Shown piece after piece: positions 803 through 61,343 of a DNA stretch of 64,000 nucleotides; position 1 is the stretch's first letter; each line of letters starts with the position of its first letter. Location of the stretch: the sequence record PP400779; one strand, written 5' to 3'. Under the pieces are notes generated by a model. That model saw only the letters and a list, made by a program, of their open reading frames with translations. It had not been told where the DNA came from and ran no database searches. The position numbers were made by a program, and so were the translations under genes. The stretch comes from Escherichia phage JM17.

Positions 803-1537
803 ATGGAGCTAATCTTTTTAAGTGGCATCAAACGTAGTGGTAAAGACACTACTGCTGATTACATCAATTCAAACTTTAAATCCGTAAAATACCAATTGGC
901 ATATCCGATTAAAGACGCTCTAGCAATAGCCTGGGGACGTAAACATGCTGAAGATCCTGATGTATTCACAGAGTTGAAATACGAATACTTTGAAGGCATT
1001 GGATATGACCGTGAAACACCATTAAATCTCAATAAGTTGGATGTTATTGAATTATTGGAAGAAGCGCTAATTTATTTACAAAGTCAATATTTACCAATTA
1101 ATAATGTTAAAGTATTATCATCATTAGAAGGTGGGTATTCATATCTAGATATTAAACCATATGAAGCCCTGCGTGAAGCTATAAATAATATCAACGACAC
1201 ATGGTCAATCCGCCGTCTTATGCAAGCCCTCGGTACGGATGTTGTCGTTAATTTATTTGACCGTATGTATTGGGTTAAACTTTTTGCATTAAACTATATG
1301 GATTATATTGGAAGTGATTTCGATTACTATGTTGTAACCGATACACGCCAAGTCCATGAAATGGAAACCGCTAGAGCGATGGGTGCTACAGTTATTCATG
1401 TGGTTCGCTCTGGTACGGAATCCACTGATAAACATATTACAGAAGCTGGGTTGCCTATTGAAGAAGGCGATTTAGTTATTACAAACGACGGCTCTTTAGA
1501 AGAGCTTTATTCTAAAATTGAAACAATCTTAAGGTAA
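803..1537 (+). CDS. 1: deoxynucleoside monophosphate kinase (T4 gp1)
   Basis: 244 aa; N-terminal P-loop FLSGIKRSGKDTTADY; C-terminal ...ATVIHVVR...GLPI..GDLVITNDGSLEEL matches T4 gp1 as recalled. Confidence 0.9.
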   Translation: MELIFLSGIKRSGKDTTADYINSNFKSVKYQLAYPIKDALAIAWGRKHAEDPDVFTELKYEYFEGIGYDRETPLNLNKLDVIELLEEALIYLQSQYLPINNVKVLSSLEGGYSYLDIKPYEALREAINNINDTWSIRRLMQALGTDVVVNLFDRMYWVKLFALNYMDYIGSDFDYYVVTDTRQVHEMETARAMGATVIHVVRSGTESTDKHITEAGLPIEEGDLVITNDGSLEELYSKIETILR

Positions 1538-1541
1538 TAAA

Positions 1542-2227
<686 letters not shown>

Positions 2228-3962: not shown

Positions 3963-4036
3963 GGCCCTGTAGCTCAATGGTTAGCAGCAGTCCCCTCATA
4001 AGGGAAAGGTTACCAGTTCGAATCTGGTCTGGGTCA
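3963..4036 (+). tRNA. tRNA with anticodon CAU (Met, or Ile2 if lysidine-modified)
   Basis: hand-folded cloverleaf: acceptor GGCCCTG/CTGGGTC (one U-U mismatch), D-loop with GG, anticodon loop CUCAUAA, T-arm ACCAG-TTCGAAT-CTGGT. Confidence 0.6.
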
Positions 4037-4042
4037 TATATT

Positions 4043-4119
4043 CGAGGCATAGCTCAATTGTATAGAGCAACGGATTTCTAATCCGTAGGTTGAAGGTTAG
4101 AATCCTTCTGCCTCGACCA
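4043..4119 (+). tRNA. tRNA-Arg (anticodon UCU), CCA encoded
   Basis: acceptor CGAGGCA/TGCCTCG, D-stem GCTC/GAGC, anticodon stem ACGGA/TCCGT with loop TTTCTAA, T-arm GAAGG-TTAGAAT-CCTTC, discriminator A plus CCA. Confidence 0.85.
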
Positions 4120-11512: not shown

Positions 11513-11544
11513 AATAAATACCTCCTATAAACGTGGGAGGTATT
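11513..11544 (+). promoter_or_regulatory. RBS-sequestering hairpin with embedded late-promoter-like AATAAATA upstream of gene e
   Basis: stem TACCTCC (11519-11525) / GGAGGTA (11536-11542) contains the SD GGAGG; ATG at 11545. Confidence 0.5.
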
Positions 11545-12033
11545 ATGAATATATTTGAAATGCTTCGTAATGACGAAGGTCTTAGACTGACTTTATACAA
11601 AGACACTGAAGGCTTTTGGACGATTGGCATAGGCCATTTGGTAACAAAGAACCCGTCTTTAGCCATAGCTAAAGCTGAACTTGACAGAATTATCGGACGT
11701 AAATGCAACGGTACAATTACCCTTGATGAGGCTGAAAAGCTATTTAATGAAGACGTTGATAAAGCCGTTCGCGGAATCTTGGGTAATGCTAAACTTAAAC
11801 CGGTATATGATTCTTTAGATGCGGTTCGTCGATGTGCATTGGTCAATATGGTCTTCCAAATGGGTGTAGCAGGCGTCGCCGGTTTTACTAATTCTCTTCG
11901 TATGCTTCAACAGAAACGTTGGGACGAAGCGGCAGTAAATCTAGCCCAATCTAAATGGTATCGTCAGACACCTAATCGCGCGAAACGCGTAATCTCAACA
12001 TTTAAAACAGGAACTTGGAAAGCGTATATATGA
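11545..12033 (+). CDS. e: lysozyme (endolysin, T4 gene e)
   Basis: [32 protein letters not shown]... near-identical to T4 lysozyme as recalled; catalytic E11/D20/T26 context present. Confidence 0.95.
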
Positions 12034-12806: not shown

Positions 12807-13109
12807 ATGAAAACATATCAAGAATTTATTACTGAAGCGCGAGTGAGTGCAGGTAAATTAGAAGCCGCTATAAATAAAAAGGCCCATTCATTTCATGATT
12901 TGTCCGATAAAGACCGTAAGAAACTTGTAAGCCTTTATATTGACAAAGAGCGTATTCTCGCTCTTCCTGGCGCTAATGAAGGTAAACAGGCCAAGCCTTT
13001 GAATGCTGTCGAAAAGAAAATTGATAACTTTGCTTCTAAATTCGGTATGTCTATGGATGACCTTCAGCAAGCGGCTATCGAAGCAGCTAAAGTAATTAAA
13101 GGTAAATAA
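12807..13109 (+). CDS. internal protein-like (leader MKTYQEFITE)
   Basis: CTS-like N-terminus; GTTTAC...TATAAT promoter and AAGGAAAC SD upstream. Confidence 0.55.
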   Translation: MKTYQEFITEARVSAGKLEAAINKKAHSFHDLSDKDRKKLVSLYIDKERILALPGANEGKQAKPLNAVEKKIDNFASKFGMSMDDLQQAAIEAAKVIKGK

Positions 13110-14071: not shown

Positions 14072-14434
14072 ATGAAAGCATATCAAATTCTTGAAGGTGC
14101 ACATAAAGGCACTATTTATTTTGAAGACGGTACTCAAGCCCGGATTATTGTCTCTAAGACTTTTAAAGAAGACTCTATTGTAGACCCGGAAATTTTCTAC
14201 GGTTTGAAGGCCCGTGAAATTGAAATTGAACATCAACCTAAAGTTAAAATTGAAGGTGGTCAACATCTGAACGTTAACGTTCTGCGTCGTGAAACTCTGG
14301 AAGATGCAGTTAAGCATCCGGAAAAATATCCGCAGCTGACCATCCGTGTATCTGGTTATGCAGTTCGCTTTAACTCTCTGACTCCGGAACAGCAGCGCGA
14401 CGTTATCGCTCGTACCTTTACTGAGAGTCTATAA
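14072..14434 (+). CDS. glycyl-radical cofactor protein (GrcA/YfiD-like C-terminal module) with phage-specific N-terminus
   Basis: C-terminal ~60 aa ([63 protein letters not shown]) match E. coli GrcA as recalled, glycyl radical motif RVSGY; codon usage in this segment is host-like. Confidence 0.7.
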
Positions 14435-15657: not shown

Positions 15658-16200
15658 ATGAGAAAAGCACTACTCGCTGGTCTATTTGCTCTTTCGTTAT
15701 CAGCATATAGCTCCGAGCATACTTTTAGTAATGTCCAACTCGATAACTTGAATTATGCTTATCAGTTCGGGGAACAGTTTTCTAAGGACGGAAAATTTAA
15801 AACGCATGAAAATATGCATAAGAAAGGACTTGGATACATAATGGCCGCAATACTATGGCAAGAATCATCTGCCGGTATTAATCTTAAAGATAAGAAAGGT
15901 CACCATGCGTATGGAATGTTCCAAAACTATCTACCAACAATGAGGGCAAGAATTAACCAGCTTGGTTATAATATGACTGATGCCCAAATTAAGAAAATGC
16001 TATCTAAGCGGTCTAATTCAGCCAGATGGGCTTATATCGAATTTTCTTATTGGTTAAATATACATAACGGGGATATAAGGAAAGCTATATCCTCATATAA
16101 TGCGGGATGGAAGACAAGTGCTGGAAGTAAATATGCTTCTGAAGTCCTAGAAAAGGCTAATTACCTTAAATCAAATAAACTACTGGAAATAAAAGAATGA
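15658..16200 (+). CDS. secreted lytic transglycosylase-like (SLT domain) protein
   Basis: signal peptide MRKALLAGLFALSLSAYS; SLT-like motifs ILWQESS, YGMFQ, SSYNAGW. Confidence 0.5.
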   Translation: MRKALLAGLFALSLSAYSSEHTFSNVQLDNLNYAYQFGEQFSKDGKFKTHENMHKKGLGYIMAAILWQESSAGINLKDKKGHHAYGMFQNYLPTMRARINQLGYNMTDAQIKKMLSKRSNSARWAYIEFSYWLNIHNGDIRKAISSYNAGWKTSAGSKYASEVLEKANYLKSNKLLEIKE

Positions 16201-16544
16201 CCAAAATGTTGGCTTTAATAGTTGGCTTGGTTTCATTTAACGCTCTTGCTAATACTACATATACTGATGTAACGGAGTATACAAACAGAACGGCGTCTGA
16301 TTATTGTGGTAAAAGTCGAGAGTGTAAAGTAGATTTTTCACAAAAATTGTTATATGCGTATAAAGACGGAGAAAAAGATGGGGCGTCTAGTAGGTTCAAG
16401 GCGTCTACTTTAATTAAAAGATACTATAAAAAATGGCAAATATTAGAATGCTCGGTGGCGGAACCTAAAGATAAGGCAGCATGCAATTCTATGGTGGACC
16501 GTCTAGTTGACTCTTATACTAGAGGACTTGCAGCAAGTGATTAA
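16197..16544 (+). CDS. secreted/periplasmic small protein
   Basis: signal peptide MTKMLALIVGLVSFNALA. Confidence 0.4.
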   Translation: MTKMLALIVGLVSFNALANTTYTDVTEYTNRTASDYCGKSRECKVDFSQKLLYAYKDGEKDGASSRFKASTLIKRYYKKWQILECSVAEPKDKAACNSMVDRLVDSYTRGLAASD

Positions 16545-59515: not shown

Positions 59516-60538
59516 ATGGCTGAATGGATAGATAATGAATTTGCTTATCGTGCGTTTTCTCACCTACCTCGTTTTAGACAAATCAATAATTCAAGCACAT
59601 TTAAATTAACATTTCGATGTCCAGTTTGTGGCGACTCCCAGACAGATGCAATGAAAGCTCGCGGATGGTATTACGGTGGTACTCCTGGTAATGTACATTG
59701 CTATAACTGTCAATACCACAATACAATTTCCGGATACTTAAAAGAGTACGATGAAGAGCTTTATCGCGAATATCTAATGGAAGTTCGTAAAGAAAAAGCT
59801 AGAATGGAACCAAAGATTGAAAAGGTTCCTGAAGCTAAGCCGGAGCCAGAGAAAAAGACTATAAATTCTTTGCCGTCTTGTTCTCGTCTGGACAAGTTGC
59901 CTGAAGAGCATCCTATTGTGAAATATGTTAAGTCTCGGTGTATTCCTAAAGAATCATGGAACAGATTATGGTTCACATTAGAATGGCCCAAATTGGTCAA
60001 CAAGATTCAACCTGGTACGTATAAGAAAGAGATTCCCGAACCACGTTTAGTGATTCCTATTTTTAATAAAGACGGGAAGGCCGAGTCATTCCAAGGACGT
60101 GCACTTCGTAAAGATGCTCCTCAGAAATATATCACTATTAAAGCATTTGAGTCTGCAACAAAAATTTATGGTGTTGAACGTGTTAAGGAAGGAGACGTCT
60201 GGGTAATGGAAGGCCCTATTGATAGTTTATTCATACCCAATGCAATCGCTATTACAGGCGGCTCAATAGATTTAGATGTGGTACCATTTAAAGAACGTCG
60301 GGTATGGGTAATGGATAATGAACCTAGGCATCCGGATACTATAGCTCGCATGAAGCGATTAGTTGATGCAGGCGAACGTGTCATGTTCTGGGACCGAGCT
60401 CCATGGAGTTCAAAGGATGTGAATGATATGGTAATGAAAGAAAATGCAACACCACAAGAAATTTTAGAATATATGAAACAGAATATTTCAAGTGGGTTGC
60501 ATGCTAAAATGAGATTATCTCGTTATTCGAAGATTTAA
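59516..60538 (+). CDS. 61: DNA primase gp61
   Basis: 340 aa; zinc ribbon CPVCGDS...CYNC; TOPRIM-like WVMEGPID. Confidence 0.85.
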   Translation: MAEWIDNEFAYRAFSHLPRFRQINNSSTFKLTFRCPVCGDSQTDAMKARGWYYGGTPGNVHCYNCQYHNTISGYLKEYDEELYREYLMEVRKEKARMEPKIEKVPEAKPEPEKKTINSLPSCSRLDKLPEEHPIVKYVKSRCIPKESWNRLWFTLEWPKLVNKIQPGTYKKEIPEPRLVIPIFNKDGKAESFQGRALRKDAPQKYITIKAFESATKIYGVERVKEGDVWVMEGPIDSLFIPNAIAITGGSIDLDVVPFKERRVWVMDNEPRHPDTIARMKRLVDAGERVMFWDRAPWSSKDVNDMVMKENATPQEILEYMKQNISSGLHAKMRLSRYSKI

Positions 60539-60732
60539 ACCAGACCTATAATAGCAAAGGCCAAATCAACTACAGTATCCAATGGAACAGAAGGAACTAT
60601 AATACCATGGGCAACTAACAATGGTGCAATCCCGAAGTTCCATGAAATAATGCCACCTACAACTATTGCAGCGATAGCAGTTTTCTTTTTATTGCCTTTA
60701 ATAGCGTTGATTAACGATGGAAGTTTAAACAT
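60535..60732 (-). CDS. small membrane protein encoded on the opposite strand
   Basis: the only convincing minus-strand gene: strong RBS TAAGGAGATATT-ATG; two hydrophobic helices; AATAAATA late-promoter-like box upstream. Confidence 0.4.
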   Translation of the reverse strand: MFKLPSLINAIKGNKKKTAIAAIVVGGIISWNFGIAPLLVAHGIIVPSVPLDTVVDLAFAIIGLV

Positions 60733-60821
60733 AATATCTCCTTAGTTACCTTATTATTTATTACGCTTTATAAAATTAATGTTAGAATTAACTCTCTTAT
60801 ACTGAATTGAAAGGAAAAATA

Positions 60822-61343
60822 ATGGCACACTTTAACGAATGTTCACAACTTATTTCTGGTGTTGATAAAGCAGAAGAAGCTTATTTTAATGCTCTGATTC
60901 ACGAAGATAAAGACCCACTGCAGGTAATGCTTGATATGCAGAAATCTTTACAGGTTCGTCTGGCAAATGACAAGCCTGAACATAACAAACATCCTGATGA
61001 ATTGGCTACTGCTGGTGATGTTGTTGATTGGCTGCGTAATCAGAAAGATTATATTGATGATGAATTTCGTGAACTGCTGACTTCACTTGGCGGTATGAGC
61101 AATGGTGAAAAAGCTGCCAGCAGTGTATGGAAGCCGTGGAAGGCACAACACGCTGAATATCGAAATCGTCGTATCGATGAACTGTCTCCTGAAGACCAGC
61201 TTGAAATTAAATTTGAAATGATTGATATTCTGCATTTCGTTCTAAATATGTTCCAAGGTCTAGGACTTTCTGCTGAAGAAATCTTCAAACTGTATTATCT
61301 GAAAAACCAACACAACTTTGAACGTCAGGATAATGGTTACTGA
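60822..61343 (+). CDS. 56: dCTPase/dUTPase gp56 (MazG-like)
   Basis: MAHFNEC... matches T4 gp56 as recalled. Confidence 0.8.
   Translation: MAHFNECSQLISGVDKAEEAYFNALIHEDKDPLQVMLDMQKSLQVRLANDKPEHNKHPDELATAGDVVDWLRNQKDYIDDEFRELLTSLGGMSNGEKAASSVWKPWKAQHAEYRNRRIDELSPEDQLEIKFEMIDILHFVLNMFQGLGLSAEEIFKLYYLKNQHNFERQDNGY

Follow-up and report, generated by a model that had tools for sequence, protein, structure and literature searches.

A lone opposite-strand gene between primase gene 61 and dCTPase gene 56 of T-even phages: a conserved small membrane protein with a probable late promoter

What is a single gene facing the wrong way doing in an early region of a T-even phage genome? The question is raised by a stretch of 64,000 nucleotides from Escherichia phage JM17 (sequence record PP400779), referred to here as the window, in which + strand open reading frames (ORFs) make up 92% of the 64 kb and the + strand corresponds to the early/middle (counter-clockwise) strand of the T4 map. 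Between the primase gene 61 and the dCTPase gene 56 lies a minus-strand ORF of 65 codons, which an earlier interpretation made from the letters alone (the sequence-only reading) had singled out as a lone opposite-strand gene. The ORF is exactly where it had been placed (60535..60732), and it is the sole ATG-initiated minus-strand ORF of at least 40 amino acids in a gap in + strand coding within the window. The explanation that we favor as a whole, with a probability of roughly 0.78, is that it is a conserved gene for an inner-membrane protein of 65 amino acids, served by a late promoter; that it is a gene, that its product resides in the membrane and that it is expressed late are, taken jointly, highly probable.

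Judged from a comparison of the window with Mosigvirus, Tequatrovirus and Gaprivervirus loci, the reading frame is shown to be under purifying selection. The ratio of nonsynonymous to synonymous substitution rates (dN/dS) was 0.06-0.22 within genera, and in every pair the proportion of synonymous differences (pS) lay far above that of nonsynonymous differences (pN). Between genera, synonymous sites were saturated (pS ~0.75, pN ~0.32), and the variable alignment columns were distributed 41/17/54 over the three codon positions. The purifying signal cannot stem from the other strand, because the ORF overlaps other coding sequence only at a 4-nt TTAA. A tblastn search found the protein in 692 phage records, in 685 of which it was covered over at least 80% of its length and was counted as intact; these counts and the dN/dS values bear out the earlier view that the gene is real. 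A frame that is short, lacks a domain match and is missing from the T4 and JS98 reference annotations might be suspected of being a chance ORF in an AT-rich intergenic spacer, taken up by gene callers. However, dN/dS is far below 1, variation is dominated by the third codon position, the frame stays open over 62-69 codons in at least eight genera at identities down to 15-30%, and the start context is conserved. A chance origin is thus exceedingly improbable, the selection data and the conservation of the frame across genera having effectively refuted it.

The gene belongs to a family that has been catalogued before. Over 59.5-61.4 kb the window shows 99.9% identity to Escherichia phage FL18 and 97-98% to ST0, phi25-307 and other Mosigvirus phages, and by its sequence the source phage is RB69-like, a T-even member of Mosigvirus. 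The minus-strand ORF is a genuine gene and the ortholog of RB69ORF029w (NP_861719), in PHROG 2024 ("unknown function"): the profile match covers the full length (residues 1-65 on profile positions 1-65 of 65, E 1.9e-27), the position is conserved and the invariant core residues are present. RB69ORF029w (16061..16258), one of the novel RB69 ORFs of Nolan et al. 2006 (PMC1524935), shares with the window gene its family, its position, a length of about 65 amino acids and its convergence with gene 61, and the two do not differ in kind. The sequence-only reading had not mentioned that near-identical public genomes already list the ORF as a hypothetical protein; such an entry, on the opposite strand, stands in the FL18, ST0 and RB69 annotations, and the identical 65-residue protein occurs on 217 contigs, in all of which it is named hypothetical. 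As a sequence feature it is therefore already known, an ORF family without an assigned function, with nothing new about it at that level. What is added here is that T4 and JS98 carry unannotated orthologs, that diverged subtypes extend over at least eight genera, and that the core of a late promoter is conserved.

At least eight genera of Tevenvirinae keep the gene in one and the same position, where it converges on gene 61 and lies immediately upstream of gene 56 or dam, and the arrangement is the same in T4, JS98, Gaprivervirus, KPV15, Moon and Melville. The T4 ortholog (66 amino acids, 54% identity; NC_000866.4, 17738..17938, + strand) lies inside the 309-bp gap between dam and gene 61, where the T4 reference genome annotates nothing and a recent Pyrodigal/PHROG annotation of a T4 isolate calls the ORF. 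The JS98 (Dhakavirus) ortholog, also of 66 amino acids (NC_010105.1, 15343..15543, + strand), is in the same place and likewise unannotated. Both ORFs are intact, and each is preceded by a Shine-Dalgarno sequence and a NATAAATA element. Three subtypes can be distinguished: type A in the T4 and Mosigvirus groups, type B in Dhaka and Klebsiella phages, and a Moon/Gelderland type. The JS98 protein represents the diverged subtype B (hhalign against the type-A profile, probability 90.6%, E 1.3e-6; PHROG 2024, E 6.5e-28), and the T4, Gaprivervirus, JS98 and TH41 type B proteins, which cover both subtypes, all match PHROG 2024 at E < 1e-24. In Jiaodavirus KPV15, Moonvirus Moon and Gelderlandvirus Melville, subtype B and the third subtype fill this position, running convergently toward gene 61 and lying upstream of gene 56, and further family matches were found in Kanagawavirus and Marfavirus. 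In Gaprivervirus TH41 a type A gene (locus 1501..1695) is followed in tandem by a type B gene (~1708..1908), the two being diverged paralogs; the type B copy has its own Shine-Dalgarno sequence without a separate promoter motif, and all that CJ20 retains of the second copy is a decayed type B remnant (locus 1700..1815). The gene is not present in RB49 (Krischvirus), where genes 56 and 61 are only 14 bp apart.

A broad search with a profile from a mixed alignment gathered 123 clusters at 90% identity, almost all of 62-69 amino acids with a handful truncated or longer, most of them on T4-sized contigs and none with an informative name. When 1.84 billion representatives were searched exhaustively with HMMER, the type-A profile, which proved too narrow, returned 6 matches, all from the family itself, and a scan of IMG/VR yielded 7 loci only. 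Few conserved T-even genes lack both a name and an assigned function, and this is one of them. Because the coding sequence (CDS) is missing from the T4 and JS98 records, counting tables based on annotation, whether from microarrays, RNA-seq or proteomics, would not report it.

The start region carries the strong ribosome-binding site that had been noted from the sequence (AAGGAG, 5 nt before the ATG), and an (A)GGAG(G) element occurs at the same place in every lineage examined. It was also claimed that a late-promoter-like sequence precedes the gene on the minus strand, and this claim has gained from comparison. In seven of nine lineages, among which the flanks cannot otherwise be aligned, an ATAAATA core precedes the ATG by 12-22 nt: AATAAATA at 22 nt in Mosigvirus and in a second Tequatrovirus context (L010) and at 21 nt in JS98, GATAAATA at 21 nt in the T4 type, CATAAATA at 16 nt in Gaprivervirus, and both GATAAATA and CATAAATA in KPV15. 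The AATAAATA of the window matches a TATAAATA-type late element at 7 of 8 positions (-13 to -6), and its A at -13 is a recognised variant. Among 50 T4 late promoters, 32 are perfect and 9 have A(-13), the commonest variant (Geiduschek and Kassavetis, PMC2988020), and in RB69 the T at -13 is poorly conserved, with A or T being common (Nolan et al. 2006, PMC1524935).

Copies of the core are scarce in the window. There are 10 on the + strand, as against 19.4 ± 4.1 expected from first-order Markov simulations, and 3 on the minus strand, as against 11.8 ± 3.4, a depletion of about twofold and fourfold, respectively, so that the chance of finding a minus-strand copy within a given 30-nt stretch is about 0.001 and the motif at the gene is more than chance. 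The copies lie at 1181, 4473, 11514, 12870, 17768, 17991, 21162, 21174, 27365 and 61351 (+) and at 14119, 52072 and 60761 (-). Eight of the 13 are 20-32 nt before the first ATG of an ORF, those of soc (TATAAATA), the lysozyme gene e (AATAAATA) and rI (AATAAATA) included, and the other two minus-strand copies, at 14119 and 52072, have no ORF behind them. Because most copies stand at this distance from a gene start, ATAAATA appears to be close to a reliable late-promoter marker in this genome.

Transcriptional polarity points the same way. All early and middle transcripts of T4 are of opposite polarity to the strand of the 65-residue gene (PMC2988020), and by this rule a gene in the minus orientation must be late. 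A scan for sigma-70-type promoters found none on the minus strand within 500 nt upstream of the gene, which is oriented against early and middle transcription, with neither a sigma-70-type nor a MotA-type promoter on its own strand. The gene is probably switched on late in infection, and the earlier proposal of a late-expressed membrane factor inside the early block draws support from the comparative evidence and from the polarity rule (PMC2988020). Late genes situated in early regions of T4, namely soc, e and rI, resemble it in that a short promoter of the NATAAATA kind precedes the ATG by 20-32 nt, and e and rI of the window have the same AATAAATA variant. These genes are, however, oriented like the early genes, so that read-through from upstream is possible, whereas the 65-residue gene faces the other way, and its late promoter is therefore the only evident source of its transcription. 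At e of the window (ATG at 11545; 11513..11565, + strand), where AATAAATA rather than TATAAATA stands upstream, an inverted repeat (cctcc...ggagg) lies over the Shine-Dalgarno sequence. In T4, early read-through RNA hides the ribosome-binding site of e, and late transcripts begin inside the hairpin; the arrangement at e of the window matches.

A real gene could also be transcribed early or in the middle period from an unrecognised promoter, as are the genes of Imm and Sp, with ATAAATA being kept for some other reason, for example because it makes up the upstream portion of the promoter that reads divergently into gene 56. In favor of this, the MotA box of the middle promoter of gene 56 immediately adjoins the motif in Mosigvirus, imm and sp are 2-3 kb away, and within the window motif AATAAT agrees with a sigma-70 -10 element at 5/6 positions. 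T4 Imm and Sp are, like the 65-residue protein, small T-even envelope proteins encoded in the same 5-kb neighborhood, although imm and sp belong to the early genes, are encoded on the other strand and have no homology to it. Nevertheless, the motif keeps its distance to the ATG where the neighbor is not gene 56 but dam (T4) or other sequence (L010, L012), and so travels with the ORF and not with gene 56. Together with the negative result of the sigma-70 scan on the minus strand, this makes early or middle expression quite unlikely.

Several observations weigh against a late, conserved membrane protein gene as proposed here. The curators of the T4 and JS98 reference genomes left the ORF unannotated, and a literature search found no transcript, ribosome-profiling or proteomic data on the gene. 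The late-promoter hidden Markov model of Nolan et al. 2006 called no site upstream of RB69ORF029w (PMC1524935). Moon and Melville have ATTAAATA in place of the core, departing from it at -12, and none of the nine lineages has the consensus T at -13, the base there being A, G or C (G in T4, C in Gaprivervirus, G and C being the rarer variants); the avoidance of T may reflect selection for a weak promoter or for weak expression. In some lineages the motif is so near the ATG that the leader would begin at the Shine-Dalgarno sequence. In one Tequatrovirus record, T4_ev240 (LR597657.1, ~16195..16320), a one-base deletion in a AATAAGAAA run frameshifts the ortholog, so that the gene may be dispensable, or the deletion may be a homopolymer sequencing error; the flank upstream of this ortholog resembles the second Tequatrovirus context (L010), not that of T4 itself.

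The 65-residue protein fits the description of a membrane protein that had been given from its sequence. AlphaFold2, run with 14 and with 30 sequences, gave the same picture both times, with a short helix at residues 4-13, a long one at 15-41 and a short C-terminal one at 51-62 (mean predicted local distance difference test score, pLDDT, 79.5 and 81.3). The product is accordingly modeled as a small inner-membrane protein with one long transmembrane helix (15-41, pLDDT 81), and a transmembrane segment had been predicted at residues 21-41 of the RB69 ortholog (Nolan et al. 2006, PMC1524935). The N-terminus is basic (KGNKKK), all five Lys and Arg residues precede the long helix, and none occurs past residue 17; a cytoplasmic N-terminus is thus expected from the positive-inside rule. 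Hydrophobicity is also high over the last 22 residues (Kyte-Doolittle ~1.9), two of which are acidic; this segment may be a helix of the re-entrant or interfacial kind, or else the second arm of a hairpin. An alignment of 30 diverse members shows W31, N32, P37 and G43 to be invariant (W-N-x4-P-x5-G) and A39, P47 and G63 nearly invariant, with Asp or Glu in every case at position 52; the window protein carries W31, N32, P37, G43, P47, D52 and G63. From the positions of the invariant residues, constraint therefore falls on the outer half of the membrane-spanning helix and on the turn that follows. A polar Asn within a transmembrane helix usually marks helix-helix association.

No match to the protein was found in Pfam (E ≤ 10), NCBIfam or PADLOC, a profile search of PDB sequences gave a chance match only (E 1.6), and Foldseek returned 0 matches in the PDB and, in BFVD, the protein's own family and weak 63-residue proteins only. 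A signal-anchor-release (SAR) domain was considered for the first helix and rejected, Gly, Ala, Ser and Thr making up 10/24 residues in Mosigvirus but 5/24 in Gaprivervirus. From the sequence, trypsin would release one convenient peptide (LPSLINAIK), the remainder being a 48-residue hydrophobic piece without Lys or Arg, and shotgun proteomics would therefore be nearly blind to this protein.

The architecture of the locus raises the further question of whether the transcript might matter more than the peptide. The 89-nt spacer between the ORF and gene 56 has two back-to-back promoters, the late motif on the minus strand and, facing away from it, a strong, predicted MotA-type middle promoter for gene 56, whose MotA-like box stands 3 nt from the late motif and which is not part of the 65-residue gene. 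This middle promoter corresponds to the predicted RB69 Pm:16038 (score 21.6), which is among the best-scoring RB69 middle promoters, and in T4 the gene 56 transcript also primes the replication origin oriA (RefSeq note). At the other end, the 4-nt overlap of the stop codons with gene 61 is also present in T4, RB69, JS98, Moon and Melville, and a scan for intrinsic terminators found nothing relevant on the minus strand and none between the two genes. With overlapping stops and no terminator, a late transcript must therefore run antisense into gene 61. The locus could then be mainly an RNA-level unit, in which an antisense RNA transcribed late from NATAAATA silences or processes the primase and read-through mRNA and the peptide is secondary; the convergent linkage with gene 61 is kept in all genera, and sites are known at which both strands are transcribed by T4, each at a different time (PMC2988020). 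Against this stand the strong purifying selection on amino acids while synonymous sites are saturated between genera, the constant protein length (62-69 amino acids) and the invariant W, N, P and G. Moreover, the overlap of the stops is common but not obligatory: KPV15 has between the small ORF and gene 61 a GC-rich hairpin, aaggggctttggcccct (locus 1475..1492), which looks like a bidirectional terminator and is not present in Mosigvirus or T4, where the stops overlap, and CJ20 has a 119-nt spacer there. That the RNA is the main product is unlikely; an antisense role could coexist with that of the protein, though it cannot replace it.

We propose that, late in infection, RNA polymerase with the late factors gp55 and gp33 and the gp45 clamp would begin transcription some 6 nt downstream from AATAAATA, against the direction of all early and middle transcription, and that the resulting short mRNA would be translated efficiently. 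The KGNKKK N-terminus of the product would stay in the cytoplasm and helix 15-41 would span the inner membrane, bringing W31-N32, P37, G43, P47 and the acidic residue 52 near the periplasmic face, after which a short hydrophobic helix would lie in or on the membrane. The transcript would continue antisense into the 3′ end of gene 61 and would probably be ended by Rho once translation stops.

What such a protein does can at present be narrowed only to a best guess, namely a non-essential, dose-limited, low-abundance late membrane factor that would act on another membrane protein, of the phage or of the host, through its conserved membrane and turn surface and by contact between helices. As its functional area we tentatively favor the modulation of envelope integrity or of lysis timing, because small late membrane proteins of lytic phages usually act there. 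More speculatively, PHROG 2024 might be an overlooked late membrane effector found throughout Tevenvirinae, either an extra partner of holin T and antiholin RI in lysis inhibition or a dose-limited factor with a host inner-membrane protein as its target, a possibility that we hold to be doubtful. If it were true, the missing T4 and JS98 annotation would have hidden the gene from decades of T4 genetics and from omics work that relies on annotation, and the avoidance of T at -13 would reflect selection for low expression of a potent protein.

A more specific suggestion is that the protein is itself a holin or pinholin, forming the lethal lesion of lysis. It is small, hydrophobic and probably late, it has at least one transmembrane domain as holins do, a hairpin of the class II holin kind could be built from its two hydrophobic segments, and UniRef names the OE5505 member "Holin", while the KP1079 member is annotated "putative holin". 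The likeness extends to the class II holins and pinholins (for example S21 68) and to T4 T, RI and RIII, which are small and membrane-active, with two hydrophobic segments and a short turn. The 65-residue protein nevertheless differs from class II holins and from the T4 lysis regulators in having no sequence or profile similarity to them, no charged C-terminal tail and no place in a lysis cassette. Searches of Pfam and PHROGs gave no holin family match even at E ≤ 1-10, PHROGs returning phrog_2024 only; the protein ends ...DLAFAIIGLV, without a charged hydrophilic tail, its Lys and Arg residues all being N-terminal; and e (11545..12033) is about 48.5-49 kb away. T-even phages already possess holin T, and t-null mutants do not lyse. 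In genetic terms, t, e, rI, rIII and the spanins fully explain lysis by T4. A holin or pinholin is therefore very unlikely, and the holin label on a few family members is unsupported, three of four testable defining features having failed.

The features of the locus are collected in Table 1. The local gene order is dmd, 61.4, imm.1, imm, sp, 61.2, ..., 61, the 65-residue gene, 56, soc, mrh, modA/B.

Table 1. Coordinates of the minus-strand gene, its predicted signals and its neighbors in the window
Feature	Coordinates	Strand	Basis
CDS, 65 amino acids, ATG start, MFKLPSLINAIKGNKKKTAIAAIVVGGIISWNFGIAPLLVAHGIIVPSVPLDTVVDLAFAIIGLV	60535..60732	-	ORF listing; PHROG 2024, E 1.9e-27; dN/dS; AlphaFold2 helices
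Shine-Dalgarno sequence AAGGAG, 5 nt before ATG	60738..60743	-	sequence
Predicted late transcription start, 17-nt leader	60749	-	inferred from motif at -13 to -6 and the geometry of Nolan 2006
AATAAATA, predicted gp55-type late promoter, A(-13) variant, 22 nt before ATG	60755..60762	-	motif, conservation
TTAA, overlapping convergent stops of the 65-residue gene and primase gene 61	60535..60538	both	sequence; 4 nt
Primase gene 61	59516..60538	+	PHROG 47, E 3e-102
Middle promoter of gene 56: MotA-box-like GCTTTA (60765-60770), 12 nt, TAGAAT (60783-60788)	60765..60788	+	sequence
dCTPase gene 56	60822..61343	+	PHROG 173, E 1.6e-45

Elsewhere in the window, ARAGORN and Rfam agree on two tRNA genes, tRNA-Met (CAT) and tRNA-Arg (TCT), at 3963..4119 on the + strand; the Rfam and tRNA scans of the window found nothing beyond these two, which are far from the 65-residue gene. 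Upstream of the matched segment FL18 is not collinear with the window, since e begins at position 11545 of the window but at 12952 of the locus taken from FL18 (FL18 75113..); feature coordinates from FL18 were accordingly applied within the 59.5-61.4 kb match only. From this offset, the window phage and FL18 would therefore differ by an insertion or deletion of about 1.4 kb in the tRNA and internal-protein region.

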